The notes beneath the pieces were generated by a model. The model was not told the DNA's origin and searched no databases. It saw only the letters and a program-made list of their open reading frames with translations. 64,000 nucleotides of DNA from Amoebophrya sp. A120 (taxonomy: Eukaryota; Protista; Dinoflagellata): the NCBI GenBank assembly GCA_905178155.1, contig CAJINV010000001.1:2284089-2348088 (forward strand), written 5' to 3'. Positions within the stretch are counted from its first letter, which is position 1, and each line of letters starts with the position of its first letter. The position numbers were made by a program, and so were the translations under genes. Positions 6,297 to 49,734 of this stretch are shown here, piece by piece.

Positions 6297-6439
6297 GACG
6301 GTCAGGCGCCAATAGATTCTTGCACCAGACAAAGCTGGTAGTGGTTGTAAAAGGCCCGAGCTCGGAGCTTGCTACATACTGATAATGTACTGCTCAACGA
6401 AAAAAATGCTCAACACCAGGGACGAGAGAGGCACAAGCC

Positions 6440-12700: not shown

Positions 12701-14157
12701 TTTTTCCACTTTTGAAACAGCAGATTTAACATTCCTAACCCCCGGATAGTAGGATTCGGTTTCAAAATCGTGCCTCTTTTCCCGTTCCCGATCCGCCGCT
12801 TCCTGCTCCAACTGCCCCGTTGTTTCGACGACTTGCAGGAAAATCTGCATGGTTAGTTCCACTTTTTTACAGCTCAACTGTAAACTTTCTTTATCTTCGA
12901 AAAGGTCTTCAACATCTTGCTGCGTCCCTACCCGTGGTTGTTTGCCCCTAGTACTCTGTTTGCTTTCTGCCAGATCTGAAAAGCTTCCGCACGAGTGAAA
13001 GAGGATTTTGAGCAGGACGAAAAGCAGGCCGTTGTCGAGAAGCATTTCCATCATCCTCACGGAAATAGCAGCAGCCGCACCTTTTTCGAAATCACCGATT
13101 CTGTCCACGCAATCGAGAATGTTCTCCAGTATCCTGATTTGAAGACGTGCGTCGCTAGCTGAGCCGAAATGCAGCAACGCGAGAATCAGACAAATTCCTC
13201 GGGACCGAAGTGTCGCTTCTTGTTTCATCTCCGGAGCTGTGGCACGATACTGTGGATCTTCCTTGCGTACAGTTACACCATCATCTGCCGTGCTTGCAAC
13301 TACCATTTCTGTTCCGCTATTAGTTATTTCCACCGCAGCCCCGGCCATGTTTCCGGTGACGCGACCCCCGCGTAATTCGTGCACCCCTGCTGCTTCGCGC
13401 GGATGTGTTTCATCTTCATTCTTCTTCCCCACCCCGGAAGATGAGCCATGTCGCAGTGCCTGGAGCGCGCAATCGCCAAAGAGGAAGTCCAGGAGCGATG
13501 ATTCCTTTGACGTAAAGTCCAGTGCGTTGTGGATCACCTGCAGCTTCCCCTCGATCTCGTCCAGATCCACTTTAGTGGGTCTGCCTATCCCGGCCTTTTG
13601 CGCTGATGACTGAAGTGCAAGAACGACCTCACGATCGTCGGTGGCCTCGTCCACACGTCGATCCAGACTGTGCGCCTCGTCAAAGCAGCACTTCACCACG
13701 GAGTCCGCGACAAACGAGTCTTCCACCGTGAGCGTCTCCGGCACGAAGTAGCCTTCCGGGTGTTTCTGCAGCCGGAAGAAGCTCCGGGGCGGCTTCTCGC
13801 CCGGGAAGAGGCGGTGGACCTTATGGGATTCTCAATTGTTACATTCTCAACTGTTACATGAATGCGTGATGCAAGAATGGCAACAGGGAAAGCCGGATCT
13901 TGCAACTCTTGCAATACAAATTCGGCACAGATTCTCATCCTGTTTAGCCCTCCCAAAATGTGTCATGCGAAGTAGCTTCAGCTTGTGGACGTTGATGCTC
14001 GTTTTGCATGACAAATCATCTAACAGTTGAGAATGTAACATTTGAGAACGCCATACACCTGCCCCTGTATTTCGAGCCGGAGTTTCCGCACCGTCCAAGA
14101 AGGATCGGCGAGGAGTAAAAACTTCGTCGACGCATCGTACTCGACGATCAGCTTCAT
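9720..14157 (-). CDS. Large helical-repeat (ARM/HEAT-like) hypothetical protein, 3 exons
   Basis: ATG at 14157 (MKLIVEYDAST). Removing introners 13822-14055 and 11525-12613 joins QGQV|HRLFPGE and YRENR|RYFARDY into one frame with ORFs 12563-13744 and 9720-11765. Leucine-rich helices. The family call is inference. Confidence 0.7.
11525..12613. mobile_element. Introner family A carrying a nested ~0.8-kb GC-rich insertion
   Basis: TATCAAGTGCAAATATGTCTGGGTGTGGAA ... TTCCAGACCCAGGCATTTTTGCAATCCATA. TSD TCGGA/TCGGT. 1089 bp versus 262 bp for the typical copy. Confidence 0.85.
13822..14055. mobile_element. Introner family C
   Basis: TATGGGATTCTCAATTGTTACATTCTCAACTGTTA ... TAACAGTTGAGAATGTAACATTTGAGAACGCCATA. 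TSD GACCT/CACCT. Confidence 0.9.
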
Positions 14158-25321: not shown

Positions 25322-27184
25322 TTACGGATTCTGCGGACAGCCCGGGAAGCAGGCCTTCGTCGACGCGTCAGCAAAAAAGTCCGTCATGTTCGGCAACTCC
25401 GCGTCCATGTTGTTTTCGCCCCGCTTTCCTGCGAGCATCATCTGCGGGAAGCCCAGTCCCTCGACCCGCTTCTTGTTCACTTCGTCCGCGCATGCATTGC
25501 AAATATGTCTGGGTCTGGAAGAATGCAAACTTGTGATGCACATTTCACAACACGTAAAAATCTCTCATGCATACTAGGCAGCAAAAGCTGCCCACTTTCT
25601 GTCACCAAAATAAATGGCACATTTGTCATGCGGATTCGGCATTGCGGAAGCTTCTCGATGAAATCTGTGATGCTAGAGCGTCCATGCCAGACCTTCTGTG
25701 TCATGCAAAAGCAGCATGACTCTTCCAGACCCAGGGATATTTGCATTTGATACCGCGTCGGGGCCCTCCTCCTTGATGCCCGACCCGTCGAGTCCGTCCT
25801 TTTCCAGTGTCTTCGTGGTCAAATCCGCGGTGAACAAAACCTTCCCGTTGGCCTTGTCCAGAAACGCCGGGGTAGTCGAATCCGCGTGCAGCGCCAACAC
25901 ACACAAACCGACATACAGTGGGGTCTCCCCCCCGGGAAAGGCGGCGACCTCGGTGACACCCCCACCCGGGTGGAGGCAGCAGGACCGGATCTTGCATTTA
26001 TTCGTCCCGTTTGTCGCCTCGGTAGAGTTCAGCTCGATCGCCATGTCCCAACTCAAGCGGTCGGTCGCGCATATCAAAAGGAAACATCCCCCCTCCTCAT
26101 ATCCACCCCAACGCGTCTGACGTGTCTGATGCAGGATCTGCATACACAAATCAGATTTGTCTTGCTGGAGAGGAGTGCAGACCCATACTCAGCCGAAGTC
26201 GAAAGGTTTTGGCCTAGGCGTCTAGCATGAGAAACGTCCACGCTGTAGGCCCATCAGCATCACAAACCGCCTGCATAATGCTGCGGAGCTTGTGGAGTTG
26301 CCTTCTCGCAAGACAGGCGTGATTCGTGGTCTCAAATCAGCAACGCAAATTTTCGGAAACATACCTTTTCGATATGGGGAGGGGGGATGTTTCCTTTTGA
26401 TAGCGCAGTGCCCCACACTGTAGCCCACGTCGAACGCGTAAATGAATCCGCCGTAGGAAGAGATTTGTATCAAATGTAAAAATGTCTGGGTCTGGAAGAT
26501 TCCGGGATTTGTGATGCATATTTTGCATGACCCAGGATGTCTTTAATGCATGATCTAGCATCACAGATTTTTGGAGGGCTTCCTGATGCCTATTTCGCAT
26601 GAGAAATGCCCTCTCCGCGTAGCACAAACTAGACTCCTCTTGCTGGTCACGCAATACAGATTTTTTTAGAGTCCAGAGTTAGCGTCACAAGTTCCAAACT
26701 TCCAGACCCAGACATTTTTGCAATCCATAATTTGGAGGATTAACCCATTGGTCACCTGCGCCTCGATCATTTTCGGAATCACCATCGTGCTCAGCACGTA
26801 GGAACTCCGCGCGCCGATCTCCACGTGCGCGTCAAACTCGCTAGCCGGGTGCTCCCAGAAGGGCTTGCCGAGGTAGGGGGTCATGCCGTCGAGCGATCCG
26901 CAGGAACTGTTGACGACGAGGGAAATGCCCGTGCCGGCGGCCTTTGCGGCTTCCGCGACGGTGTTGACAAACTCCTGCACTTTCGCCTCATTTCCCTTCG
27001 CCTGGTCCAGCGAGTAGGGGATCACTTTCCCGGGTCCACCCGCACAATCCTTCGCGAGCGCTTCCAGTTTCTCCGTTGTCCGCGCACACGCATACACCGT
27101 GTAACCGCCCTCGTTCGCGAGGACTTTGGAAATACCCCGGCCGAAACCGCGGGAAGCGCCAGTCACAATCGCGAATTTCGACAT
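25322..27184 (-). CDS. Short-chain dehydrogenase/reductase, DHRS1-like (three introners)
   Basis: AIVTGASRGFGRGI Rossmann motif and KPFWEHP. Spliced QISSYGGFIYAFDVGYSVGHCATDRLSWDMAIEL and GPDA|DEVNKKR. Confidence 0.88.
25491..25752. mobile_element. Introner family A (reverse orientation relative to 714-972)
   Basis: CATGCATTGCAAATATGTCTGGGTCTGGAAG ... CTTCCAGACCCAGGGATATTTGCATTTGATA. TSD CCGCG. 262 bp. Confidence 0.9.
26072..26402. mobile_element. Introner family D
   Basis: 32-bp TIR TATCAAAAGGAAACATCCCCCCTCCTCATATC ... GATATGGGGAGGGGGGATGTTTCCTTTTGATA. TSD GCGCA. Confidence 0.9.
26468..26729. mobile_element. Introner family A
   Basis: TATCAAATGTAAAAATGTCTGGG ... CCCAGACATTTTTGCAATCCATA. 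TSD ATTTG. 262 bp. Confidence 0.92.
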
Positions 27185-28920: not shown

Positions 28921-31519
28921 CTAATACCTTTGTGGTTTTGACAAGCTTCGGGTTTGCTGCGGTTCCGGCGAGTCCAGGATGTCCATAGAGCTTGGGATAA
29001 GCCTCGGCAACGTCCCGGTCGACTCTGATTGGGCCATCGAGTGGTCCCCCACCCCGGGGTACTCGTTGGAACTCAACACTTCCAAATTATTGTTCGTGTA
29101 GGTCGTTATCGGCTTTGAGGTCAAGAAATGCTGGTTGTTGATGTTCGGGGAACCATGATTTGTCGTGCTGGTTGATGTACTACTATGTGCACTGGGTAGA
29201 TGAGACGCGCTGTTCTTCGAGACAGTACTCGTGTTGATTCTGTTGCCCGCGAAGCTGCTCGTTGGCGTTCCTGAGGACGAGTACTGGATAGAATGCAGGT
29301 TCTGATTATGCTGGTACGGCCCCAATATCTGCTCGTCGTTGCGTTCGGGGGACAAATGGGACAAGTGCACAAAGCTACAGCCGGAGGACGCGGCCATCTG
29401 CGACCGGGCGTAGCCCATCCTGGCGTTGGTTAATCCGAAGTTGGTGCGGAGATCCAGGTCTCCCTGGTACTTGCTCAAGTGCTCCAATCGGCGCTGACAC
29501 AGGTCGAGCTGGTCAATCAGCTGCTGGATGGTCGGCATCTCCTTCAGTTTGATACTCTTGCAAAACCGGTGTGTGCCGGCCGCTTGGGTACCTGATAGAG
29601 ATAAAGTGATGCAGAAAATAACTGAACAGTGTAACATACATGAAACTCAAACTGGTTCAACACACATAAAGATGAGCATAACGGCATCCATAAAGACAAC
29701 AATGTGAGAAGCAGGAAGTACTTAAATAAAAACGCATAATCTACATCAGACCTAGCCACCGTCTCCTGTACCTACTAACCGCAGTGTGGCCGTTCTTTCC
29801 GCGATGCCGTCGCCTACGGAGACCAGGTTCTGGTACCGGCCCTGCAATAATTCCCGCTTGAAAACGTCCAGTTTGTAGGTGAGCAGGTAGTTCATGGGCT
29901 TCGCGAAGATCGGGTAGCTCCTAATTTTGGCGTGCATGACCGGCATAAACGCTTGACAACTGGTGTCGATCCACCCCGGGGCGCTATTGGTGATGATCAC
30001 TACCTTACCGTACTGCTCGGCGAGCGTCAGCTATGCATTGCAAAAGTATCGTACTAAGCGTACATTGCATTACAAATTTATTTCAGAAAGAAAAGTGGAG
30101 TTTGTAATGCTGGTTTGCCTAAGATGGGCAATTTGTCATGCATGATTGCAATTACTACGAGTAGGATACTTCTGCAATGCATATAAGCGTCTCCACAACC
30201 ATCTGCGCCAGGTAGTTCAATTGCTGCACCTATGCATTGCAAAAGCGTCTGGGTCTGCAAGAGTGGAACTTGTAATGCTGTCTTTGTATTCCAGAAAAAT
30301 CTGTGTTGCATGAGTAGCAAAGGAAATGCAATTTTTGCTACGCTGAGAAGGCATTTGTCATGCGGAATAGGCAACAAGAAGCCCTCAAAAAATCTGTATT
30401 GCTAGTGTATGCATTACAGACATCATGGCTCATGCAAAACGTGCATGACAACTGTCAGAATCTTCCAGACCCGGACTTTTTTACGATTGATAGCACCAAC
30501 TGCGGGCGCATTTTCTGTGCGGGGATGCGAAGGAGTCGGCTCCGTTCCAGCGCGGACGTGGGAAAAAAGGTGTCATCCCAGTCAAACACGATCAGCGTGT
30601 TCTCAATCGACGTAGCCGTGGTGGCCCCATGCGAGGGGGAGTTGGAGGCAACTGTGAGTTGTGTGGGAACTTGTTTGGGAACAATAAAAGTAATATGTAA
30701 CAAGTAAACTCATTCATCTTAGCCTACAGCAGAATTATTTTTAGCAGCCGCAGCTTCCACTCTTACAAGGATAAGGTGGAAGTGGTACTGATTCTAGTTC
30801 CAAATCCAGTCCTATTGAATTCAGTAGAAGCAGATCATACGTAAAAGTACCTGATGAACTTCCCCCAAGTGCCGCGGTGCTGTCTGATATCCCCGAGCTG
30901 GTATTCGGTTTGTTGGAATTGAGGGAGCTGCGGAGCAGGGTGGGTGGGGTATGGCGTTCTCAAGCGTTACACTCTCAACTATTACATGAATTTGTCATGC
31001 AACAATGGCAAACGCGAAAGGGGAGACCTAGCGCGTCTTGCAAGACAGATTTGGCACAGATTCTCAGCCTGTTTGGCTCTTCGAGAATTTGTCATGCAAA
31101 GCAGCTTGATCATGTAGATACTGATGGCAATTTTGCATTACAAATCGTGTAACAGTTGAGAATGTAACATTTGAGAGTCCCATATGGGAGGCTGTACTCT
31201 TTCGATCCAGCGGTACGAGGCGCCATGCTGGAAAAAGGAGTATCAAATGCAAATATGTCTGGGTCTGGAGGACCGCAGAAGTTTGCCATGCTGTTTTTCC
31301 GTGACCCGAAAGGTCTGGCATGCAGGCCCTAGCATTACAGGTTTTGAGAAGGTATCGCTATGCCTAATCCGCATGACAAATCCCATCTTTCGGCGACACA
31401 TAGTGGGCCACTTTTGCTGTCCACACATGACAGATTTTTGTGTGATTTGAAATGTGCATGACAAGTTCGCGTCCTTTCAGACCCAGACAAATTTGCACTT
31501 GATAAGGAGCGATCGTCAT
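28921..31519 (-). CDS. HAD-superfamily-like protein (FDWDDT type), four introners
   Basis: NTLIVFDWDDTFFPT (motif I), spliced QYGKVVIITNSAPGWI (motif II), NLVSVGDG (motif IV), last exon KSIKLKEMPTIQQLIDQL. The start is uncertain. Confidence 0.8.
30032..30183. mobile_element. Introner family E (short copy)
   Basis: TATGCATTGCAAAAGTATCGTACT ... AGTAGGATACTTCTGCAATGCATA. TSD TCAGC/TAAGC. Confidence 0.85.
30231..30492. mobile_element. Introner family A
   Basis: TATGCATTGCAAAAGCGTCTGGGTCTG ... CCAGACCCGGACTTTTTTACGATTGATA. TSD GCACC. 262 bp. Confidence 0.9.
30950..31184. mobile_element. Introner family C
   Basis: TATGGCGTTCTCAAGCGTTACACTCTCAACT ... AGTTGAGAATGTAACATTTGAGAGTCCCATA. TSD TGGGG/TGGGA. 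Confidence 0.88.
31241..31504. mobile_element. Introner family A
   Basis: TATCAAATGCAAATATGTCTGGGTCTGGA ... CAGACCCAGACAAATTTGCACTTGATA. TSD AGGAG. Confidence 0.9.
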
Positions 31520-31934
31520 CCACAATCAGAAAGCTCGCCGCCGTGTTCGGTTCTACTTTTCGGCAGCTGATGTTCCTGCGGTGGTGGGGAGCAAGTTGTA
31601 GTCTTCGTCCGCTCTTAATGTGTTTGTAGTAGAACCCTGGTTTCTTGATTGCTTATTGTGGTTGTCAGCGTCGTTGTGGAACGAAACGAACTATCCGTCG
31701 CTGCCGTTTTTCTTGTCTCTTTTGCTTACGTCGCACTCGCGCCGCTTCTGCCTATAATCCCGGCTGGAAGAACTTTTGTCCCGCGTGAAGTACTTAAGTT
31801 GTTGTCGTGATCGTTCGTCGCGTGTCGAGTCACAAGTTTCTTTTGAATTCCAAAATAATGTTGAAATTACTTCTTTTTGGGGAGTAAAACGCCTTTCAAG
31901 CGGGGTACGTAAGCGTTGGAGCAGCTGAAGTTGC

Positions 31935-32113
31935 TATGAATGGACAAAGTACAAAAGTTCAGTATTAACTATTGCATTTTCTGAGCCGTATTTTTCATTT
32001 TCCAAAATGCAAAAACCGATTTCGATTGTCATGAAAACAATTTTTTGTCATGGAGAAAACATTTCTTTGTGATGCAAAAACTAAATTCTTGAGAACGCAG
32101 AACTGCTTTCTGA
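31935..32113 (+). repeat. Left TIR of the large element (truncated by assembly gap)
   Basis: 179 bp, reverse complement of 37954-38132 with no mismatch seen by eye. Confidence 0.93.
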
Positions 32114-32213
32114 NNNNNNNNNNNNNNNNNNNNNNNNNNNNNNNNNNNNNNNNNNNNNNNNNNNNNNNNNNNNNNNNNNNNNNNNNNNNNNNNNNNNNNN
32201 NNNNNNNNNNNNN

Positions 32214-32877
32214 TCTTCGCAAACAAGTGCGAGCACACACTCCTGCGCGGCGTGTGTGAGGTTATTATGCTTGGCGGGGATGATTTTTTGTCTTTGCACA
32301 CGAAGACTTTGCGGACTTCCCGGATTTTCTTCTCGAATGACTCTTTCTGAAAGTTGAAATTCGGGCCATCTTTTTCGACCCCGTTGTCATCCATGTGGTC
32401 CATCATCTCCTGCAAAAAGTCCTTTGTTTTTTTGCTCGGGTCGATGGGCACATTCTTGATTTTGCCCCGGCCCCCTTTTGTGGTCGCCAGTTTTGAATTC
32501 CCGATGCGGACGGTATTCAAAGTTAAATCGCCGCGCTGCAATAGCCTTACGTCCATGCCGCGCCGGCCAGTCAGGCATGCCACAATCCACGCGAGTTTAT
32601 AAAATTTGCCCGCTTCCTTCTTGCGGCCGGTTGATGCTTCCAATGCGTCGCCGAACCGCAGACAGTCTCCCATCGTGAGCGACCCGGAGCGCTCTTCGCT
32701 ATCAAAAACATCCAAACGCTTCGGCGTTTTGCGGGCGCTTGGCTTTGCGATGGTCTTCTGTTTCTTCTTTCCCAAGACAGCCTTCTGCGCTGCGACTGCC
32801 TTCTTTTTCAGCGTCTTTTTGAAGTTCGGCTTCAGGGCGGACTTCTGTTTCTTGCCTGCGATTTTTTTCCCCTTCAT
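32214..32877 (-). CDS. Tyrosine recombinase (catalytic domain) with K/A-rich basic N-terminus; 3' end lost in gap
   Basis: Box I WIVACLTGRRGMDVRLLQRGDL, catalytic Lys region TTKGG...KNVPI, box II TSHTPRRSVCSHLF. The His/Trp and Tyr nucleophile are expected inside the gap at 32114-32213. Confidence 0.8.
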
Positions 32878-33243
32878 CGCTGCGGAGATATGTGATGCGA
32901 AGGTCGTAGCTGCCGCTTCTGAGGTATTCACGATTCGAAAAAGTCGATGTAATAATGAAAATGATAATGAAGATGATGATGAACACAACTATATTACAGA
33001 TCGAGGCGGAACTGAAAGCCTACAAGAAAAACAACCCGGGAAAAAAAGTCAACGAGCTGGCTTTTTACGAGGTACTTACTTTTATGTTGCGCCATGGTTT
33101 GCGGAGCAGATCGTGCGAATTTTTGAAATAGAAACTGATGCTCGCATCCGATCTTATGGTTCAGGATTTCTCGCGAAAATGAAACTCAAATTGAAAACAA
33201 AATCACAAAACAATACCAGAGCCAGTGCGAAGGAATCAGTGGT

Positions 33244-36200
33244 ATGGGCGAGATCAACATCATCAACCAAGCCCGGCGTGAGTTCGGGTGCAGTCAGACC
33301 AACTGGTTGCAGACCATCAGGCGCCTGAGTTCCTCCAAGGATGACAGCAAGTTCACTACGCTGCTGAAGTACGCTTTTTCTTTATTACTAGTCTGTTAGT
33401 GTTGGTGTGGTCTACTACTACTTCTACATCTACTTTTCTACACAACGTCCTGATGTCTGTGTGCAGTGACAGTGAGTGTGACGCGGATATCTAAGACAAA
33501 AATAAGCTGCGACGTAAACAGTATGGTGAGAATCTATTTCGAGATGTAGACGTAGCGGCAGCTCCTGCCTGAGTATGTGCCTGTGAGTGGAATTGGAATT
33601 TTTGCATTGCAATCGCATCGCTGACGCTGTCGCTGAAGCAAGACGGGGACGTAGAAATAAGTATTGAAGATGACGGCTGCGCACACGAGCTTGCTGCAAC
33701 AGCAGCGAGCAAGTGTTTTGCTTTCGTCTTTCTCTCACTCGACAATTCTACTAGTCTTGTGTGTTTCGATGTGAATGTAAAAGCAGAACGCCTCGAGCTC
33801 GACTTCGAATTCGCTTTGTAATGCGATTGCGAGTAACAGTATCAGCATCTGTATCAATATCTATTGTGACATCAGGACCCGCCTGTTCGAGTTGCAACTG
33901 CGCTACCTCCGCCCCGCGTTGACCGACATGATCTTGGACACCTTCATGCACCTCCTGCTCGGACCGGACGCGGTGTCCTTGAACAAGAAGCAGATGAAGG
34001 AGATCAAGCAGATGATGCGCCAGAATTGGCTGAAAGACGAGAAATCGGATAGCGTGCGCAACCAGTACCTCGTGTGGTTGGTGAGCGAAATGTGCAGAAA
34101 TGCCATGAAGGGGAAGACCAAGCTGGACAAGAACAAAAAGAAGCCGAAAGGAAAGATGTTAAAGAATGCCGGGTTGCTGTCCGACGACGAGGAGGATGAT
34201 TTATTCGTGGAGCCGGAGATTCAGGGCGCTGTCTGGACCGTATTTCAGATTTTGATTTATTTCAGTGCATACTAACTTCTCCTTGCAGTAGCACTACCTC
34301 CAGTCACGTCCTAACTTTTCAGATAAAGCAAATCGCACGAACCAGTAGTATTCTCTCACTTAAACTAAAACTAAAACTCACCCCAGGACAAGGATGGCGT
34401 GTACGGTTCGTTGGTGACTGCGAAGTGTCCCGAGGAACTCAGGATCGAGTACGACGGAGACTTCAGTTTCGGTAAGAAACTGGTCGAGCAGCAGAAATTG
34501 GACGACTCCGTGCTGAAAGAGATCGAGAACGTGATCCGCACCTGCGCGAACCTGCAGAAGCCGTACTTCGACGGCGCGAAGGTGGTCGGTACCTTTGTCG
34601 TGCGGTTCGCCGACAACAAGACGCTGAACTCCACGGTCACGTTTGCGGAGGGGATCGAGGTCTTCAAATATCAAGATGTTCATGTTGATCAAATTTCTAA
34701 TGCAAGTTTTAATGCATGTAAGCGAGTTCGTATTTGAAAATGAAAACTTTACCTATGAATAATCCACAGATCACCATCGAGTGCGATACCACTGATGAAG
34801 CGCTGGGATACCTCGATGGGAAAAGTGGTGAAATTCAGGGAAAAGTCATGTCGCCCGAGGTCCGCCAGATCAAGAACCAGCTGCACTCGCTGGCCGCGAA
34901 CTACCAGGCCGATCTGAAGGTGCTGAAGTCCAACTTGGAGACCACTTTGAAGGCCATGGAGAAAGCCATGAAGGCGGAGATGATTGCCCGCAAGAAAGCC
35001 AAGGTTTTTTTTATGATTTTATTTCAGTTTGTGCGAGAATGCAACGAGTATTTAAATTCGAACTAGTATCTGCGTCCATTCCATGAGCGTGTGTGTGAGC
35101 TGCGACTTCCACTTCGACGATGGATCGCGTGCGATCCGTCTGTAGAAGTACCTATCTCGCAAAACAGCTCTACGTGATTCCCGGGACGCTTCGGTTGGAT
35201 TTAACTGATCACACCAAGAATGTATCGCAGTTGCAATATTTATATTTATGTTTAGTATAGAGCATTGTTTGGAATTTGGCTGTGACATCGTTCTCCTAGA
35301 AATTCATAGTGACCTATGATAACCAGCTTTTCATCCCGGGTTCGTTCAACCTCCAGTTTTCCGGTTCTATTCACCAGGTGTATGTCAACGCTGCCAAGGA
35401 GGAGTACGAAGAGAAGTGCAAGAAGCACAAAGATGCCTGCGAGCTCGAGCAGAAGCAGTTGAAGGAGATTTTCAACCAGGAGACCGAGGCCTTAGGGGAA
35501 AAGTTAAAATCGGCCGAGGAGGCCAAATGGTTTCAAGTGAAGTGCGTGGCTAAGTCGCGGGCCAAGGCCAAGGAACCGGTGGAGGAGCAGCAATATGCCC
35601 TGATGGACGTACTTTTATTTCTGATGTTTTTTTAGTCGTGAGCGCGACGTGAGCGTGAAGAGGAAAATGGGCAAGACTTAGAAGACGAGCACTCACTTGC
35701 GAAAGACTTTGTTTTCAAAACGAAATCTTCGTCAACAAAAATCAGTTCCCGGCGGACTGCCTTTCGTTGAACATGGGTCACTACACCGTGCAGTGCAAAA
35801 AAGGGCTGAAACAGGGACAGACGTGGACGCTCTCCTCCGAACAATTAGTGAAAGTGAGTGTCGTGCCGATCAAAGTGCCCATCAACTTCCACATGGAGAA
35901 GATGAAGCTGTCCTCGCGGTTCCAGATCCTGCAAGAGAAGGCCATCACCTTGGACTTCAAATGCGACAAGAAGGTGAAGGGAATCAAGTTCGAGATGACC
36001 ACGTTCTGCTTGGGTGACCTGAAGTTCGACTGCTTGATTCCGTATTTTTATTATCATCATGCTTTTTGTCATCTGATGTTCATCATGATCATCTTCATCA
36101 TCATCTTCATCATCATCTTCATCATCATCTTCATCATCATGCTCTGTATCATCTGTTGTTAATGAAGTGCTTCATAGTCATAGCTTATGATGTACTGTCT

Positions 36201-36809
36201 ATGATCTCATAGTCATGCTCATCATTATCTCAAACTATCAGGTATGAGTGCGAGCCGAGCCGCGCCTTTGCGAACTCCCTCTCCGCCGAGTACCGCTTGT
36301 CGGCCCCGCTGAACAAGCCCGCGGGCGCCAAGGGTGCCGAGGTCCCGGCTAAGAAGACCACGGCTGCTGCTAAGGCGGCCGCCGCGCTGAGCGCTGCCGC
36401 GACCAAGCTGCAGGCCTCGTACGTGGACGCGTCCCTGAACTTCTACACCGATGCCAAGAACACCGACGCCTGGGACAACGATGGTCTTTGCCAGGCCTAC
36501 CTGGATCCCAAGATGGTGGCCGAGCAGGTCAAGCAGCAGACCGGATCCTCTTCCGCGGAGGAGTCCACCCGCGATCGCAGCAGCAGCTCGTCGTCGCACA
36601 ACATGGGCATGAACTTGTCGGGACCGAGCAACGTGAAGCTCTTTCAGCAGCAGATGAGGTTGCGGAACCATTCGGCGTTGTTGCGTCCCCGCGGCATGAG
36701 CGAGCTGTCCATCGAGTCGGCGAAGCAGGATGATGACGAGACGCCCAATGCGAAGCGAAGCAGGACCAACACCTTGGATGAATTTACCTTTTTAGACACG
36801 AATATGTAA
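33244..36809 (+). CDS. Element-borne 7-exon orphan protein (~696 aa)
   Basis: Exons 33244-33368, 33876-34239, 34387-34659, 34770-35003, 35378-35608, 35746-36041 and 36242-36809. All introns are GT-AG with matching phases; total 2091 nt = 697 codons with no internal stop. GC3-rich codons. A possible extra 5' exon lies at 33138-33158. Confidence 0.75.
36079..36140 (+). repeat. (ATCATCATCTTC)n microsatellite in intron 6 of the element gene
   Basis: About 4-5 direct copies. Explains the spurious IIFI-repeat ORF tail. Confidence 0.85.
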
Positions 36810-37953
36810 TCTGAAGGTAAATTCGTACGAGATGTATTTGTGCTCAGAAACTTTCCATTTCGACTTTCGTTGTCGGTAATCTTTTTTCTACCTCTCGTTG
36901 AAGATAGAGTGCTGGCTTTGTCTGTAGATACGGAAGTTATTATGCACAAACATGCAGTACTACTTTTAGAAATATAAATTTCATATTCATCAGTATGAGT
37001 TCGTCAACTCCACTCGAGCTGCCGCAATTCGGTCTGATTAAAGCCCGCATCCTTCCTGCGTAATCGGATGGGGCTAATTTGTTTATTTTACTTCAAAAAA
37101 ATTATCAATTTCTTTTTCGATTAGAAAAATCACTGAGATTTCAGCGAAGCGAAAATGCTTCGTGCTACACCGGCCTTCTTTAGAGTCGGCAGCTTAGATG
37201 TCTTGCCATCTACGTCTGCTGACTCGCAAATATTCGTAACATTTCTTTTTTGTCTTTCGAGTATCAGTATCTACTTCTCATCGAAAGACAAGCACTTCTA
37301 CATTATGAAAATGCAATCTTCGATCTTTTATTTTTTTGTTAGAAAAATAACAACCTGGACTCTTCTTTATCGTCACGTCTTTCGACGTGGCGTTTGTATC
37401 AACACCTTCACCGTCCTCTCGTGAAGAAGCTGCATTCGCTCGCGAATGTAGTTTCTTCGCAAAAAAACAATACTGTCAAATGATGGAAGATGATTGTCTT
37501 CCATATCTGAAAATGTTTCGCTCTACCCACCATGTGATGGATATGGTCTCCCAAGTCGCCGTGAGTTCTGCTGCGGACTTGGAGGCAAAAACGATATGGC
37601 GAAGCGATAGCTGTTTCGCCAAGAACAAATGATGAAGAGCTTTGAAGATGGTCCCACGGTCGCGCGTGCCGATATTGCGCGACGTGAGTTCGTGAAAGCG
37701 AGTCGGTTTCGGATGTCTAAGTTGAAAACTTGAACAATTGTGTTGGAGAAATCGAATAGTTGTGGTTTTGTAATAAACCACAACTATTCGAAATTTTAGC
37801 TCGGTGTAGAGGAACTCGCATTTTCCGGAAATGAAGGTTTGTTTTGCTCGGTTGAAGTTGTTTTGCTCGGTTGGTGATATTTTGGTTTTCGGTGTTTAGA
37901 ATGTTGGTTCGGTGGATCAGTGAAGTCGGTGGCTCAGATAGAATCCGTGCTCT

Positions 37954-38132
37954 TCAGAAAGCAGTTCTGCGTTCTCAAGAATTTAGTTTTTGCATCACAA
38001 AGAAATGTTTTCTCCATGACAAAAAATTGTTTTCATGACAATCGAAATCGGTTTTTGCATTTTGGAAAATGAAAAATACGGCTCAGAAAATGCAATAGTT
38101 AATACTGAACTTTTGTACTTTGTCCATTCATA
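37954..38132 (-). repeat. Right TIR of the large element
   Basis: Reverse complement of 31935-32113. May extend further inward because the left partner is hidden in the gap. Confidence 0.93.
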
Positions 38133-38895
38133 GAAGTTGCAATGCGTTGCGACAAAAAAAGGAACTCGAGAAGGGTTACTTCTTCCTATCCTATGGTGTA
38201 GTGCCTATTTTTGATTAATCGAATTGCTATGTTTACAGAGTTGAATGTTTTATTTTCCTAAGGACCGATTGCTGAAGTGATTGCTGGTGGTTTATCTTCC
38301 TCGTTCTCTTGGGGTTAGATAATCACCGAAACTGTTTCTGTTTTCGAAAAATCCGAGTCATCAAGTGTTTGTTGTCCATTCAAAAAACACAGCTTCAAGA
38401 CGTCGTTAGACTTAACATTGCCGTGCTTCCTTGCAACTCGGCAAAAAAAAAGTGCTCGTTGGAAAAAAAAGCGCACACTCGCGAGAGGCACCAGGACGTT
38501 ATTGCTTCTTTCTGATTTTTGCACGAAGTGAAGAACGTCTTGAAAAAACAACAGAAAAGAACGACAGACAGACTGTTTGTTTTCGGACGAGGACGACATT
38601 GCACGACAGAAAAAACTCACCTCTCTCTTCATGCAGAACGAAACCGAAACTGTTGTGAAAATAAAGCAAAGAAAACAGACGACCAGCATTGCTATTCATT
38701 ATTGCTTCAGAGTCAGAAAATCAAAATTCCTGTGAAAAAAATAAACTCAGCCTCAGGAGGTGGCACAAGGAAGATTCGTTCACAAGCACGATAATGTTTC
38801 TTGTGTCAAGGCGCAAGTACGAAGTCACGTTTTATGTCTTACTTTACTATAGCAAGCTTACTTGTGGGCTGCGCTGCTGCGAGCGACTTCCAAAA

Positions 38896-41800
38896 TCACA
38901 TCTGTAACAGACCATTGGTCCGCAGTAACGCTCTCACGTACTGCACTCTCTCATCGTAGTCAACGATGCTGCGCCAGAACGACGCGGGAATCTCAATGAC
39001 CTTCCAATCTAGCATGCGCAGGTGGCGGCGCAGGTTTTTCTGAAATGGTTTTCGGTTCACCAGGTCGAAGTCGTCACGATAGTAGTGAGTGCCAGATTGG
39101 TCCACCTGCTTCTCGCCTGCCCTCGTTCTTGTCGTTTCCTGGTTGAAATGGTCAACATCTCCTGCTGTGCCAGCGCTACTAGAAGAAGCATCATTGCCGC
39201 TGTGCAACAGAAACTGCTTCTTCCCGTAACATTTCTCCCGAAAAGCCTGCACTTCTGCCGCGAGCGCCGACCAGTCTTCTTTCAGATCCTCGAGCTCGAG
39301 CACTATCGCAACTTTCCGTGCCTTGTCGCACAGCGACAGTGCGTACGGCCCCACACAGGCCCAGTCGCACGGGAACCCGTGCTTCTCGAGAAAATGGGCC
39401 ACCTGGTTCAAAACCACGCACCGTTCCAATTCCTGCTTCGGCGGCGTGTACTCCCAGTTTTGGATCGCGGAAAGAAAATCCAGCAGCTGTTTCGCGGAAG
39501 TGGACGCGTACTGCTGGTGCTCCAGTCCTTGGTTGGTATTTCCCGCATTGTTTTTACTATTGTTGTCCTTCTTATTTTTCTTGTTTTCGCAGTTCTGCAG
39601 GTCCAATTGCTTATAGAACTCCCGTCTTTGCTCTCCTTGCAGCTGATGCTGTTCCCGTAGTTGGCTGAAGAACCCGTCGGTGTCTAACCGTATCAGCATC
39701 TCGATCGACTTTAATAACCGAAGTTCAGTCACCTCGCTGCTTGCGTGCATCGGCACGTGCAGTAGAGTGGCAATCACGGTCTCGGAGTAGCTTCTTGACT
39801 CCAAAAGCTCGTGCGCAGTGATCAAAGCGGTTTTCACGTCGAGTACCGGGGCGACGGTTTCGGCGTAGCGGTACAGACTTTTCATCTTCTCCGGAATTTG
39901 CCACTGGAAACGGTGGAAAAGGTCGACAAGCTGGTTAAGTTTGTATTCAAATGCTGCACTAGCACTGGATTTCTTCTCTGGCATTTCTACATCCACAGTA
40001 ACGAAAAAAGAAGAACAGATCGATTTTGTGGTCATGCTGTGGTGCAGAAGGCAAAACAGGAACAGAAATGCGCCCCTGCATCGACTTATTGAAGTACCTC
40101 GCGAATCTGGCCCAACACCATCTTGGGCGGTTGCATCAGCGCGTCCCCAGACAGGTACTCGTTGTAGATCTCCATGAAGGCGGCAAAAATGCTTTTGGGC
40201 ACAGGGACAAATTTCGAGATCAAAGTCAGCTGCTGCAAGAGATGGATCTTCAATTCCAGGTTTTTCCCGTGCACAAAATACGGGTTAATCTGGAAAACCA
40301 CCTTTTCCAGAAACCCCTGCAGAAATTCCCGATGCTCTTTGTCAATTTCCAGCGGCTTTATCACTGCTTTCTGAGAACAATTCGGGACGAAGAGCTGGGG
40401 GTTGAGTTTTACTTTGCCCGTTGTTCCTGCGTTACTTTTTGTGGTTGCGGATGAAGTTGTGGATATTCTTGTTGTTGACATGGAGCTGCTAGATGAAGAA
40501 GAAGAAGAGTTCTTTCCGCGACTTGTACTAGTCATCATCCCACTTCCTGCGGTTGACGACCTCGCCGAAGCCGGTCCTGTCGGCGCATGCACCGCAATAA
40601 TGCTGTCGAAGACCAAGGCTGCGGCCTCTAGCGGGGGCGACCAGAGCTTTTCTTTTTCTACTTTCTCAAGGAGATTGCGAAACTTTTCTGCATCTTGAGT
40701 TTGGTCCTGCGCAAACCGAGCACGAAAAAGGACGGCGTTGAGCTCTGGCTCGACGTGCTCTTCGATATCGACGGAGGCTTCATCGGATACAACAATCCCG
40801 GCGGGTTCAACATCGTCACGAGGTGCTGGCTCTACAACTATACCGGTCGTGTCTTGGGCACTCAATTGCGATAGCACGTTCTCCTGCTTCACCTCGGACG
40901 TTGATGCGGGCGCAAAATCTTCGGTTTGTGTTTCGATATCTGGCGCTGCGCTTGGGTACCTCGGCAACTCGGCATTGAGCTTCTCGTCGCTCGATGGTGT
41001 TGTTGACGCAGTGACACTACTATCAGTATAGTAGAATGATGGCTTCCTATCATTTTGTTCCTCCCAAGATACAATAGTGTCTGCCTCAAGTAGTTCGGCA
41101 CTTTTCACGGATGGCTGTAGGGATTGTTCGTCTGCCAAAGTACCGTCGTCTTCCTCATGGGCCGAATTTGACACTTTCGCCTCCACCACCTCCTGCACAC
41201 TTCTCTTAGAGGCTTTGATTTCAGGCACTTCTTCGAACGCAAGGTCCAGTACATCCTTCGGTGGGGGAACAAGGGTACTTCTATTCTCATCTGCCGGTCG
41301 TGACGGACACGCGGCCGAGCCCGACGACGCACCAAATTGTTCGGTGTCATCTTCCAGTTGTAGTTCCTCGACAGTAGTGGACGAAGACGTGCTGGCATGA
41401 TTGTAGAGATGCACTTTAGAAGCATGATCCACCTCGTTTCTTGGCGGATAATTTGACACATGGTCAGAGAACGCTTCGATCCTTTTATTCCCATCCGCGC
41501 TGGTACTAGAAGTGGCTGCTGCAGCGCTTGCAGCAGCCGCACTACTAGAGTCGTCAACATCCGCAACAGCTGTCTTCTTTGCTCGCAACTTCGCACGCAG
41601 AGATTCCAGAACTCTCTTTTTCGTTTCCATCGCGGCGACGCGCTGCGCACGGGGATCGATGAAGGGAGGCGGTTGCCTGATTTGGGTGGGAGTTGGAAGA
41701 TGATCATGTTCCTGTCGAGATACAGCAGTGCCATGTTCATCTGCTGGTGCGGCGTTTGTTACCGCGGCCGCGGCAGCCGCACTGCTACCGCTGCTGGAGA

Positions 41801-42299: not shown

Positions 42300-45200
42300 T
42301 TATGAAAACGTAAACATTTTCGCAGTCGAGTCGACTTTTCTGAACTTTTTTCTGACAAATTCCGTCCCCAAAATTCTCTCCAGCGCGCAGTCGTCGTTTT
42401 CTTGGTCCACCAAAGTGAAGGCGGCTGCCGGCACCAAAGCCATGTCTTTTGTCTTCGAATACGGGGACAGCCAGGACAGGCCCAGCATGTAGCTTTTCTC
42501 CGGGGTGCCAAAAAAGCAGAGGTTTTGCGCGTTCTTGATGTCGAACTCCGGGTGGTAAAAGAGGAATCGTTCGGTTAACAGCAACACCCGCAGATTGCCC
42601 TTGTTGAACTCCATCCGGGCCTCCTTCACTTTCAGCCACTCCGCGTACTCATCGAGCGCGACGTGGTCCACGCCTTCCTCCTCGAAAAATCGTTTTATTC
42701 GGAAGAAATCGCAGTACCGGTACCCGCTGCCAGAGACGACGATGACCAAATATTCCATTTCCGTCCCGGTGGTCCGCCAAAACTGCTTCTGAAACTGCTT
42801 AAACAAAGGCGTGTCCTCGGCTGGAGTGTCCTCGACGTCTTGCAGCTGCTTTTTTAGCGCTCTGTTCTGCTTGGAAATTGTTGTAGAGGAAGACGAGTCT
42901 TTGCTGTTCCCTTTCACCACCAGGAACATATGCCTTTCAATCGCAAAATGCTCCCGTGCGTAGTGAATCAGTTCCTCGCCGGCATTCTCCAATGCGGCGG
43001 GAAACTTCACCGCGCCGCGAAAGTTCGTTCTGAAGGGCACTAGGGTTGTCGCGTCGTTTTCTTCCATTTTGTTCTTACCACCGGTGAGTAATATTTCAGT
43101 CGCGGTCTCGTAGTTTTTGGACATGACGCGATTCTTCTTGTTCTTTTTCCCCGCTCGTGCAACATCAAGTTCATCCGCTTCGTCGTCCGCTTTGTCGCTG
43201 ACCAGTAAAGCGTTCAGCTCGGGGCAATTCCCGTTGCTGGTGACGATCGTCTGCCTCAGCAGTCGGGATTCGTTCAGTGCGAAGCACTCCCGGAGTCTCC
43301 CGATGTCGCAGTTTTCCGGTAATTTTTTCGGTTTCTTGTTGCACATCTTCAGCACGTCCAGTACATGGTCGAAGTTCTGGTACTTCAAGATGTCAACCCG
43401 ATCCAGCACGACGCACTCCAACGAGGACAAGAAATCGTACTCGCGCTGCTTCGCGGACTCGCCCTCGGCGCCGATAATGAGCCGCAGCCCTAGGGGGGAG
43501 CAAATCAGAATGTCGGACTGGTAGAAGGGGGTGAACAGCTTCAGTGCTCTTTTGGAAACTGAGACGCCAACGCGAAATTTGTCGTCGTTGTTCCCCGAAA
43601 AGCAGTGCTGCAGGTCTTTTGCGGTGTCGTTGGTCCAAGAAGAGGACTTGGGTTTTTTGGTCGACGTCGTGCTGTCGTTTATTTGCTGTTCTACATCCTC
43701 ATTCGGCCCTTCGGCGAACTGCTCATCGAATTTCGACTGCTTCAAGACCTGCTTCGCATTCGGACAGAGCGCTTCCAGCATCTTCACCAGCTCGAAAGCG
43801 ACTGACCGATAGGAACAGAGAATCAAGACCCTGGCGCGGCAGAAACCCTGGTCGCGCGCGGATTCGAGGAAAGACGCGTTTTCGTCGTCGTCGTTGTTGT
43901 TTTCCTTTTCCTCCGCTTGTTTCTGTTGCTTCGCAATCTTCGTGTTGTTCGCAACAACCTCTTCCCGGGCCTTCAACACATGATTCACCACGTGCGTCAT
44001 GTATGTGCTCCGGACCGTTCTGCTGTTGGCGAAAGTGTGGGTTGGGAGCACCACGTCCTGATACCTGTTCAAATGGTGGAAAGCCGCGTGTTCTCTGGAA
44101 CTCCATCGTTCCACAAACTCCTTGTCGTTTCCCTTCAAGGCACGGGTGTAGCCGCGCTCGGAATGTTGGGTGAAAGAACTGGCTGGTGAACATGATAGTT
44201 GTTTTTTCTTCATCTCTTGCTTGTCCTTGTTTGGACTCGTAGTGGTACTTTTATTCGCCGCACCTCCGCAGTACTTTGCCAGATCGCGCCCGGCCTTGTC
44301 CTTCTGCCCGTAAGTGAAGGACACAGTACTAGTGCCGAACCCCTTCCCGGCCAGCTTCTCTTTCTGTACGGTTGTGAAGTCAACCTGGGATTCCACATTA
44401 GCCAGTCCGAAGGAACCGTAGTGGTTGTGAAGGTCCTTGTCGGTTTGCTCTTGTTCTTGCGCGTTTTTGCTACTTCTTCTACCCGCGGCGGGACAGTTAT
44501 CTGCCAGAAGAGTTCTTTGTTCCTCCTCGTCCAACACCTCGTCCTCGCTCACTTCGTCGTCAGACAAGCCGTGCAGCGTTCGCTGGCGGACCGCTGCCTG
44601 CTGATCCGGGTCGTCTTCGTCAAGGGAGATATCAGCGTCTGATTCTTCATCCTTGTTGTCGTCGCCTTTTTTGCTTTTCTCTGTGCCTGCTTCATCACCA
44701 GAATCAGAAACCATTTCCTCATCGGAACAAAATTCCTCCTCCTCCTCGCCGATGTCTGACGCAGATTCCATAATGTCCTCCTCCTCAACAGGTTCAACAT
44801 CTTCTGCGCCTCCAGTTCTGTTCGATTTCGTTGCGCGTCGGCGGCCGAGCTTTTTCTCGTCACTATCCTCGACGTCTTCCATATCCATGTCCTCATCTTC
44901 ATCAGCGCTTGACAAATCTTGTTCCGAGTCAGAATTATCCCCGTCAGTGTTGTTCGACATAGTTCCATGTTGTTGCCCCTTCATGCTTTCCAGCAACTTT
45001 TCGTACGGTGTCTTTTCCTCCACATCCTCCGCATCCTCTTCCCCGGATGTTAAAGGGTCGTTGTCTTTTGTATGAATTGCAAAAGTATCGTACTAGTACT
45101 AATTGCAATACAAATTAGCTCAGCATGACAAATGGAATTTGTCATGCTGTTTTGCCTTTTGAATTGAATTGAAGTAGCGACGCCCCCTGACGTGCCTCGG

Positions 45201-45756
45201 TAGCCGATCGCTCTACCAACCGGAGGTGCTAATTACATGCTTATTTCTTCGTTCGTCGAGCACCTTATTCCGCCATACAAATCGGCTGGTGAGCAATTAC
45301 CCGGACTGCCGGCCCAATTTGTGCCGGTTTTGGTGTTTTAGGGAGATACCCGCAACGCCCCCGCGGAGTTGGCGAAACCCTGATAGCGAGACGCAACCCT
45401 TGGCGGACCTGAACGACCTGAGACCATCCCCACCTTTGGATGTGTTGTCTCCCGCTTGTGCTGCTCGTTCTGCTTCGAGCCGCCCAGACCCTGATAAAGA
45501 TTTGTAATGCATGACTGCGATTACTACGAGTACGATACTTTTGCACAGGATATTTTGCGACCCGCTGCAATCTGCGGTCCTCCTTGGCGATTTTCTTTTC
45601 GATCCGCTGGAGTTCCTTTTCCCGGCCTTCGATCTTTTTGTGTAACAAATCCTCGCGGTCCAGCTTCTTTTTGGTCTTTTTCTTCTTTCCGTTCTTGCCG
45701 GCCTTCTTGAAAAAGCCCTTGCTCTTTCCGGTGCCGCGCTTTTTGTTCCCGGCCAT
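42300..45756 (-). CDS. UTP25: U3 snoRNA-associated protein 25 (UTP25/DIEXF)
   Basis: RDQGFCRARVLIL, FSGNNDDKFRVG, FYQSDILICSPLGLR, YDFLSSLE, RQTIV and LLLTERFLFY motifs. Exon 1 (MAGNKKRG) joins across introner 45071-45552 (RVAK|DNDPL). Confidence 0.92.
45071..45552. mobile_element. Introner family E (long copy)
   Basis: TATGAATTGCAAAAGTATCGTACTAGTACTAATTGCA ... TGCGATTACTACGAGTACGATACTTTTGCACAGGATA. TSD TTTTG. 482 bp. Confidence 0.9.
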
Positions 45757-47574: not shown

Positions 47575-49734
47575 TTACCGATAAGAGCTGTTGCCATTCC
47601 ATGCGTTTTTCCCTGCGCCCTGGCCGCCATGAAAAGAAGACGTGCGGTCGTCATTGTACCAAGACGAGGAACGGGACCAGGATTGTTCGGAGGAAGACCA
47701 GGAGTCATTTCTCCCCCCCGACCATTCGCTCTTTGTCGCGGACCACTGATCCGTATTATTCCGACTATACGACCGATCGTTATAGTTTCCGCTAGTACAA
47801 CCGGCATGCCAGGACGACGTGCTGCTCCCCCGGTGGTGGTGGTGGTGGTTGTCTGCTCCGCCTCCGCCCGACCGGTACTGGGGGCGCTTGCGATGATACA
47901 CGACACCCCGCTTGTTTCCCTTCTTACTGCAGGCGGAATTATGTGCAGTTGACCTGGTGTAAAAATCGTCGCTTGTAGTTCCGCCCGGAAAATGAAAGTT
48001 GTCGTAAGTCGACGATGATGTTGCTGATGCAGTTGTTCCTGCTGTTGTCGAAAAGCCAACATTATTAGCTGCATCGCTACAACTCGAGCCGCTTGTCCCC
48101 GATGCTGAGTTTGCGGACGACGAAGAGGAGGGTGTCCGGGTGTCGCACGAACTCCCCGATGATCCAGGTGGGGCTCCTGCACCTCCAAGAGCTCTGTCGT
48201 AGAAGTTGTAGCTCTTCTCAACCTTGTTATGGCCATCATCTACGAAATGATCTTCAGTATTGTTCTCATCACTGGACGAGAACATTCGGTTTTTCCTCCT
48301 CTGTTCGCAGTACCACTTGTAGTCGGCGAAGTCCACTTTCACGCGTTTTGACTGGTACCTGGTCAGCGAAATGCGGTCCAGCAACACTTGGTCCACTGCC
48401 CGCCGGTAGCCCGCTTTTTTGATCAGTTCCACGATGGCCGTTTCGCGCGTCATGTCGTGCTCGAGAGCGACTTCCGGAAGGTAGGTGGCGGAAAACTGGC
48501 GATTGGGAAAATGCTCCGGGTCCTCAAAGGAGATGATAATGCCGTGCTTGCCAACTTCCCAATCATACGCCCCGTGCGCCGCAGGTTCGAAACTGTGCAG
48601 CACCGAAACTTGGCAGATCAGCATGGCTGTATGTGATTTTTTGTTCTTTTTGCGTGTCGTCGATGCTAGTAGAAACAAACGCAAAGTGGAGTGTGACTCG
48701 TCCTTCGCCTTCCATGCGAAAAATCAGATAAGTACAGTCGACGTGGTTCTTGCGAGAAGACATGGCACTAGCGGTTTTACCGTCAAGTATTAGAGACAGA
48801 AGCAATGAAAACCAACGACAAAAACACAAACTACTGGATATCATGATTAAATCTGTACGCAATTCTCCGGCTTGAATTGGTGGAAATCTTGAATCTTCAA
48901 AGGCCGCCTTAACCGTGTAATCCCGCAAGCCAGGATGTAGATCGAGGGGCTCCAAGCACCCTATGCAGCCGCGAAGCTCCTCTTGGCCCCGGCTCGGTTC
49001 CCACGTTAGCCAGGTAACCTAGACGAAATATACAGAAAATAGTCGATGGAAAACTCGCACTCGACGCTGCCGATTCGAAGTCAAACGGAAACAAAATGAA
49101 CAGCACCCTACATATTAGGGAGTCAGAAAACAACAGAAAATCAGTAGTACAAAAAGCGGTGATCGCGATTGCGCGTCGTAGCTCGGCGGAAAAACCGGCT
49201 CGTTGTCCACCAGCTTGTTTAAGCGATATGACACGACGTCCCAAGCATAGTAGCAGAGGTCCGTATCCACTTTCGGCACCACCAGATGAGCTGCTAGGGG
49301 TGGAGGAGCAGTTGTAGTATTCGAGGTAGAAGCACTGTTAGTGTTTTTCGTCTGGTTCGACATTTGCGGCAATATGCCGCTGGTGTCCTGTATCCCAGAA
49401 AAAAAGTGTTACAGTTACACATTTGTAGTCAATTCAGCAACACAAATTTCGCTGCATGAGAGAGAAAACTTGTAATGCAGAAATCGTACGGGGAAACACC
49501 TATGAAACGAGGCTCCTATGCATATCCGGCATGACAGAGCTTGTCTGTCTTGCTTGGCCTGCAACACAATGTGTAACTGTAACACTTTTTTCTTGCGATA
49601 TCCTGCTCACTGGCGGTCGTCGTAATGGACATCGTAGACATATCCTCGCCTTGCTTCTGCTCGTCCGTGGTCTCCATTCTTAAATTGACCCCAGGAGGAG
49701 GACTCATCGTCGCAGCAGCTTGTAGCATTTCCAC
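47575..49734 (-). CDS. AMMECR1: AMMECR1-domain protein
   Basis: Spliced SPLFVTW...LRGCIG, AAFEDSRFPPI, ELPMLICQVSVL, DWEVGKHGIII, SATYLPEVA and LIKKAGY. Two GT-AG introns plus one introner. The start is approximate. Confidence 0.9.
49391..49600. mobile_element. Introner family F
   Basis: TATCCCAGAAAAAAAGTGTTACAGTTACACATT ... AATGTGTAACTGTAACACTTTTTTCTTGCGATA. TSD TCCTG. Removal gives SEQD|TSGILPQ. Confidence 0.9.

Follow-up and report, generated by a model that had tools for sequence, protein, structure and literature searches.

A Long Terminal Inverted Repeat Element with a Tyrosine Recombinase Gene and an 8-bp Flanking Duplication in Amoebophrya sp. A120

We identified an element of ~6.2 kb (31935-38132), with TATG...CATA termini and long terminal inverted repeats (TIRs), in a 64,000-nucleotide stretch of the genome of Amoebophrya sp. 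A120 (contig CAJINV010000001.1, positions 2,284,089 to 2,348,088 of the forward strand; this whole stretch is called the window, and positions are counted from its first letter). The element contains a gene for a tyrosine recombinase (YR) and a divergently oriented orphan gene, and it is a real, multi-copy, YR-bearing TIR element, apparently not described before. In the interpretation that we prefer, to which we assign a probability of about 0.5, it is a TIR transposon that depends on a staggered-cut transposase acting in trans, and its YR would serve as an invertase or resolvase at an internal site, a role like that suggested for ciliate Tec elements.

Ends of the element and flanking duplication

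The two inverted arms (31934-32113 and 37954-38133) were 180 nt long and 100% complementary, in agreement with a first-pass annotation of this DNA, which had reported TIRs of at least 179 bp without mismatch. Because the outermost C/G pair of these arms is part of the flanking repeat, the limits of the element were placed at 31935 and 38132. The same annotation had taken the TIRs to be probably young; the identity on which this was based was fully observed, but it is weak evidence of youth because assembly can collapse repeats. The exact 8-bp duplication that it had noticed was also found, with GAAGTTGC immediately outside both TIRs (Table 1), and the computed chance of a matching 8-mer abutting both ends was ~1.6e-5.

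A second copy of the element end was detected in a contig of run X3, which matched 37815-38132 without differences and then departed at 38133 into TACTGCCT, a flank unrelated to GAAGTTGC when both orientations were compared. The flank of this second end copy differs from the very first base onward, so that, judged from one contig and one end, the 8-mer appears to be a true target site duplication (TSD) and not a fixed att core. The locus alone fits either an 8-bp repeat with TATG ends or a 6-bp repeat (AAGTTG) with CTATG ends. Departure of the X3 contig right after CATA fixes the end at CATA and therefore favors 8 bp; the 6-bp TSD with CTATG ends is contradicted by the X3 flank, in which T directly follows CATA. 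A 5-bp TSD at TATG/CATA ends was rejected as well, as the flanks do not match.

We also rebuilt the empty site on the minus strand (31925-31934 and 38141-38170). The 8-mer was located two bases ahead of an AG; a T-rich run comes before this AG and an open reading frame (ORF) of ~75 codons after it, and because of this arrangement the insertion may lie just before a splice acceptor.

Tyrosine recombinase gene and its relatives

The YR ORF starts at an ATG at 32877 and runs to an assembly gap at 32214, leaving 221 amino acids visible, with Lys accounting for 38% of residues 1-50. The R, K and HxxR of the catalytic set, on which the first-pass assignment was based, were all visible as TGRR, K and HTPRR, and the TGH...Y portion falls in the gap. 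The visible ORF matched PHROG integrase families (E 2e-8), and in its gap-cut form it gave no Pfam match at E<=0.1. Five complete PF00589 homologs were 49-56% identical to the window YR, and PF00589 scored above cut-off in 6/6 homologs; HTPRR...TGH...Y was kept in all seven complete close homologs that were checked. The C-terminus was located 53 residues past the His of HTPRR in six homologs and 83 residues past it in P0006. Because close homologs extend that far past HTPRR, the window YR is predicted to be short of ~39 codons and a stop. A more distant relative, P0014, has a Cys where the catalytic Tyr is expected.

A predicted model of the homolog P0002 (mean pLDDT 73, with a disordered N-terminus) matched HP1 integrase, XerA and Cre with E values of about 1e-6 to 1e-5, which is consistent with the YR fold that had been proposed from the motifs. 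Among solved structures, the best match by sequence was IntI4 (E 0.0045). No second YR piece was found in the 64-kb window. The sequenced part of the element contained no DDE transposase, reverse transcriptase (RT), polymerase or capsid signal, and the YR is thus still its only recognizable enzyme, as noticed at the outset.

A profile search of 1.84 billion proteins returned 7 matches at E<=1e-30; the number rose to 12 with a threshold of 1e-10 and to 1030 with one of 1e-3. Nine YR relatives were named from Amoebophrya sp. AT5.2, and other close ones came from ENA, JGI, Logan and MMETSP records. A quick tree with 74 rows placed the window YR together with P0002-P0005 in a starred five-row clade, and the wider group had a support of only 83; this tree omits P0016 and P0056 (short), P0007, P0008 and P0010 (near-copies) and P0080 onward, and is without Tec, Crypton, DIRS or Polinton-like virus (PLV) reference sequences. 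Two of the AT5.2 relatives, P0009 and P0016, have gene numbers that are five apart (g19144 and g19149), so that they may belong to a cluster or to nested elements.

YR relatives were also sought together with their DNA context. None was found among 109 candidate stretches in metagenome contigs, one of 66 in viral contigs was a weak match of only 41 residues, and two of 96 in genome contigs were short matches of bacterial origin that did not resemble the element at the DNA level; none was found in phage records, and a 23-mer of the TIR had 0 matches in metagenome contigs. No published description of the Amoebophrya YR family or of the element was found in the literature covered, which left out most subscription journals. 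In the part of supplement 8 of PMC12130899 that was accessible, no Amoebophrya row matched YR domain identifiers.

Internal palindrome and extent of the TIRs

At the likely inner edge of the right TIR we found a perfect palindrome (Table 1), the longest of nine with arms of at least 10 bp in the window. Arms of even 12 bp were reached in none of 60 shuffles of the element. PMC3212892 describes YR sites as a pair of inverted 11-13-bp arms separated by 6-8 bp, a layout close to that of the palindrome. Depth was 143 at 37693 vs 253 at 37837, giving a rough estimate of ~37730 for the inner edge of the TIR. Judged by this summed contig depth, which is not copy number, the TIR is likely ~380-400 bp long with its inner end at the palindrome. 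A search with the palindrome arm gave 13 viral matches, none of which had the second arm, and these were treated as chance.

Table 1. Features of the element and of its surroundings in the window
Feature	Position	Strand	Remarks
Flanking direct repeat GAAGTTGC, left copy, probable TSD	31927..31934	+	Exact match to right copy
Left TIR, visible part, begins TATG	31935..32113	+	Interrupted by gap; 179 visible bases identical to right TIR
Assembly gap, 100 N	32114..32213	.	Presumed to hold YR 3' end (~120 nt) and inner left TIR
YR gene, Lys-rich N-terminus and catalytic domain only	32214..32877	-	TGRR 32577-32551, K region 32502-32461, HTPRR region 32265-32239
Orphan gene, divergent from YR	32961..36809	+	Predicted 8 exons, 741 aa, seven GT-AG introns
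Orphan gene, predicted exons 1-4	32961-33071, 33220-33368, 33876-34239, 34387-34659	+	Exon 1 uncertain
Orphan gene, predicted exons 5-8	34770-35003, 35378-35608, 35746-36041, 36242-36809	+	
Perfect inverted repeat, 17-bp arms, 6-bp spacer	37752..37791	.	Candidate loxP/FRT-like YR site
Probable inner portion of right TIR	37792..37953	+	Depth rise and X3 contig; left counterpart expected inside gap
Right TIR, portion pairing with visible left TIR, terminates CATA	37954..38132	+	
Flanking direct repeat GAAGTTGC, right copy	38133..38140	+	Exact
Small TIR elements 1-5	714-972, 3984-4245, 5224-5485, 5536-5834, 13822-14055		TAT-type ends, variable 5-bp duplications
Small TIR elements 6-10	25491-25752, 26072-26402, 26468-26729, 30032-30183, 30231-30492		TAT-type ends, variable 5-bp duplications
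Small TIR elements 11-15	30950-31184, 31241-31504, 45071-45552, 49391-49600, 56614-56875		TAT-type ends, variable 5-bp duplications

Assembly gap, depth and further copies

An intact YR would require a gap of more than the 100 N shown, because the ~120-nt YR end and at least 139 nt of further TIR have to fit in it; its true length is likely at least 260 bases. Two contigs of run X1, one covering 31420-31963 and the other starting from 38104, each enter the TIR by 29 letters. These overlaps are shorter than the 31-letter bridging rule and X1 is possibly the window's own sample, so that they provide support, not proof. That both flanks bear the identical 8-mer speaks for a single insertion. No contig covers the whole element, and its interior could therefore mix copies.

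Summed contig depth in run X1, which does not equal copy number, was 43-49 in the unique flanks, 137-165 in the YR gene, 54-127 in the second gene; at the right end it reached 266-305. In the same run, variant contigs diverged by up to 23 letters per 325. Together, the depth pattern and the variant contigs point to several partly diverged copies. One variant among the X1 contigs was without 37861-37985 inside the right end. Other contigs of this run connected 37228 and 32083 to sequence of small elements (see below), and these joints suggest that introners have inserted into other copies of the large element.

Small TAT-ended elements

Fifteen small TIR elements with TAT-type ends were hand-picked in the window from end-pair and self-BLAST lists, with three boundaries adjusted. 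Their 5-bp duplications were exact in 12 of the 15 and had one mismatch in the other three; none showed 8 bp. Several were present within long ORFs, and one family was extremely deep in run X1. Introner ends of Amoebophrya A120 are given in PMC7789003 as TAT, seven bases and an A run, and the small elements of the window match these published introners. Together with the named AT5.2 homologs, they point to Amoebophrya as the genus. When scored with a profile of 25 small-element ends, the large-element end ranked in the top 0.04% of window 15-mers. Transposon families of strain A120 listed in PMC12130899 include family 38, classed as Ginger-like and marked by TA/TA termini with a TSD of 5 bp, and another family with an 8-9-bp TSD and GG/CC ends.

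Proposed mode of movement and alternative explanations

Staggered cutting would produce just such a combination of an exact repeat on both sides and a flank that varies between copies, and a staggered-cut transposase is favored for this reason. Passages of PMC12220804 state that YRs do not make TSDs and report TSD-like flanks in only 10 of 232 YR-encoding PLVs of one cluster; these statements likewise favor an enzyme acting in trans over the YR. Crypton and Starship repeats are attributed to homology between element and target (PMC13465315).

In the proposed scheme, a trans-acting DDE-type transposase, plausibly Ginger-like as in the TA/TA-ended Amoebophrya elements, would bind the ends and leave the 8-bp duplication. 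Each TIR would be ~380-400 bp long with its inner limit at the palindrome, where the YR would bind the 17-bp arms and exchange strands across a 6-8-bp spacer. Two inverted sites in one element would allow the interior to be flipped, as in the geometry of FLP/FRT, and direct sites in two copies would allow cointegrates or dimers to be resolved. The orphan gene would be accessory or cargo. In the yeast 2-micron system, FLP is a YR that acts on palindromic FRT sites inside two long inverted repeats, and the plasmid is an episome without TSD or transposon ends; the likeness would be in working only, and no sequence relationship is claimed.

Several observations weigh against this scheme. Within the element no DDE gene was detected, and none was identified in trans, where no whole genome was searched; the part of the study by Farhat et al. 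that concerns strain A120 reports that a transposase was not found there (PMC7789003). The duplication is 8 bp here vs 5 bp at the small TAT elements, and because 0/15 of these show 8 bp, it is unlikely that one enzyme serves both the large and the small elements. The variable flank was seen in one contig, at one end and in another sample, and the kind of run that X3 represents was only guessed. The inner boundary of the TIR was drawn from summed contig depth. The left copy of the palindrome, expected as a mirror image within the gap, was unseen. Inversion of the interior is a prediction made by analogy, and none was observed.

The strongest competitor, tentative and in our view doubtful, makes the YR itself the transposase: it would bind the outer TIR ends, excise a circle with a TIR-8bp-TIR junction of loxP geometry and integrate it elsewhere, with the 8-mer as an overlap or a product of heteroduplex repair. 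The YR is the sole recognizable enzyme in the element, its family is expanded (with the nine Amoebophrya AT5.2 relatives) and retains the catalytic motif in 7/7 complete close homologs, and the right flank is weakly end-like (top 0.9%). The size of 8 bp is inside the overlap range of YRs (PMC3212892), YR-using PLVs have TIRs, a few of them with 7-23-bp repeats (according to PMC12220804), and no transposase is reported for A120 in the relevant part of PMC7789003. Against these points, a fixed core is contradicted for the second end copy by its unrelated flank, no resemblance to an element end is seen in the left flank, and a better-shaped YR site is present inside the element (37752-37791). Moreover, Tn916-type YR elements, which integrate independently of homology, usually have unlike sequences at their two sides. 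Because of the second flank and the internal site, we do not retain as the leading reading the suggestion of the first-pass annotation that the 8-mer could be the YR crossover overlap. If the YR did move the element, a new transposon class could be considered, in which a YR with only a catalytic domain acts on long TIR ends with variable 8-bp duplications, and Amoebophrya YRs would be the missing mobilizer of TAT-ended elements, possibly including the introners, which number in the thousands and lack a reported transposase; we think this rather unlikely, and the same holds for a new transposition chemistry, which we would not expect.

It is quite improbable that the orphan 741-aa protein is an unrecognized transposase, the YR its accessory resolvase and the element autonomous. 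The first-pass annotation had pointed to a divergent orphan gene; its orphan status was upheld, and the best model has eight exons and not seven. The gene has an intact frame, canonical introns, a transposase-like length and a strong codon bias (GC at third codon positions, 0.81 vs intron GC of 0.30-0.45), and its depth was above that of the single-copy flanks in most bins. A weak ITIECDTTDE stretch of the protein bears some resemblance to the first strand in transposases with an RNase H fold. However, exon-by-exon searches of Pfam, PHROG and NCBIfam, which are of lower sensitivity, gave no transposase, RT, capsid or ATPase match, and only one of 11 motif patterns was matched, an isolated CxxH. 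The predicted layout comprises a helical N-terminal part, a coiled-coil-like middle (residues ~325-440), a beta-rich part and a low-complexity tail; the homolog search with exon 3 was empty, the best scores in atlas searches were 0.84 and 0.83 (under 0.9), and a single-sequence fold of exon 7 had a pLDDT of 32. Judged from its sequence, the gene is unlikely to be a divergent transposase.

Alternatively, the YR and the orphan gene might be passengers of a non-autonomous TIR element, with the palindrome as a hairpin or protein-binding site. Depth decreased from the ends to the YR (137-165) and to the second gene (54-127), suggesting that these parts occur in differing combinations. Under this explanation, finding a YR gene and a YR-shaped site in one 6-kb element would be a coincidence, and no longer palindrome exists in the 64 kb, so we give it little credence. 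An assembly chimera or a PLV remnant is very improbable: the gap between left TIR and interior, the lack of a spanning contig, the 100% identical TIRs and the occurrence of PLVs with YR and TIRs in dinoflagellates, mentioned in part of the literature, would fit, but the same 8-mer is present on both flanks (chance 1.6e-5), separate contigs enter the TIR from each flank by 29 letters (below the 31-letter rule), no capsid, ATPase or polymerase match was obtained, seven spliceosomal introns are predicted in the orphan gene and the viral collection gave only the one weak 41-residue match.

Comparison with known systems

Among the closest counterparts in layout are the ciliate elements Tec1/Tec2 and, from Paramecium, Sardine and Thon, which, like the element described here, are ~5-7 kb long and combine long TIRs with a YR gene and with ORFs whose function is unknown. 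The TIRs of Sardine and Thon are given as 425 and ~700 bp and palindromic, and the YR of these elements was proposed to resolve intermediates (parts of PMC3212892 and PMC3464196). In contrast, all of them have an IS630/Tc1 DDE transposase, and none was found in the sequenced interior here. Tec elements are bounded by TA, and the present element by GAAGTTGC.

Tec3 of Euplotes crassus, reportedly described by Jacobs et al. in 2003, is said to be a low-copy element of a few kb with long TIRs and a YR as the sole recognized ORF, and to be a developmentally excised component of the ciliate germline with ends like those of Tec elements or internal eliminated sequences and a degenerate YR. Compared with this reported anatomy, and leaving YR kinship aside, the long TIRs and the YR as the only enzyme agree. 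The 8-bp duplication, TAT ends, apparently intact YR family and second, spliced gene differ. The suggestion made at the outset of an undescribed class was thus too strong: Tec1/2, Sardine and Thon combine long TIRs with a YR, YR-PLVs have TIRs, and because TIRs plus a YR alone have a reported precedent in Tec3, we consider the element a variant rather than a new class. In the sections of PMC3212892 and PMC3464196 dealing with it, Tec3 has a YR gene and 20-30 copies.

Other YR-bearing groups fit less well. A Crypton was excluded by TIRs of at least 179 bp, the 8-bp repeat and the different flank at the second end copy; Cryptons are described as having no TIRs and 4-6-bp repeats that reflect microhomology (passages of PMC3212892 and PMC13465315). 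Many CryptonS elements share TATGG termini (PMC3212892), and the element here begins with TATG. MarCry-1_FO combines a YR, TIRs and a TSD, according to the same source (PMC3212892), but its TIRs measure 16 bp and it encodes a Mariner transposase of its own. DIRS, Ngaro and VIPER were rejected as no RT or gag match or motif was found, and Starship, known for a captain YR with DUF3435 and a large cargo region, as Pfam gives PF00589 and not DUF3435 in the YR homologs and the element is 6.2 kb long. This length, with no Walker A motif and no viral family match, also excluded a PLV. YR-PLVs resemble the element in having TIRs of hundreds of bp, a YR and no DDE integrase (PMC12220804, in part), and differ in their size of 14-40 kb, their capsid, ATPase and replication genes and the rarity of TSDs reported there.

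Among Amoebophrya elements, the Ginger-like TA/TA group shares its TA/TA termini with the present element, which has an 8-bp and not a 5-bp repeat and neither an HHCC motif nor an integrase match. TAT-type introners have similar TAT...AAA inverted ends; unlike the large element, they are short and have 5-bp duplications. hAT transposons have 8-bp TSDs and YA..TR ends. By this definition, the 8-bp repeat and TA-type ends of the element are hAT-like, and a transposase with BED finger, DDE and dimerization parts was not found by Pfam or motif searches (isolated CxxH).

YR-bearing TIR transposons are described in a passage of PMC4157794 as known in ciliates only. The present element extends the design of long TIRs with a YR to a parasite of the dinoflagellate lineage, here without a recognizable DDE gene. 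It also exposes a YR family in Amoebophrya, a genus in which TAT-ended introners spread with no reported transposase. A short candidate site (the 17-6-17 palindrome) beside a small YR makes the question of resolvase versus transposase testable on plasmids, and a new pair of a small YR and its site could serve as a genome-engineering tool.

Additional features of the window

No Rfam family was detected within 31000-39000. A GC-richer stretch (50-53%) just inside the palindrome, at 37480-37730, contained short ORFs on both strands and is possibly a small or decayed third gene; two of its ORFs had no family match in PHROG or Pfam. A CAT/CTT microsatellite with a 12-nt period was located at 36068-36151, within predicted intron 7 of the orphan gene. 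Elsewhere in the window, a GC-rich region at 6433-7383 contained 114-nt and 19-20-nt tandem repeats and was edged by a 64-nt direct repeat with 97% identity.

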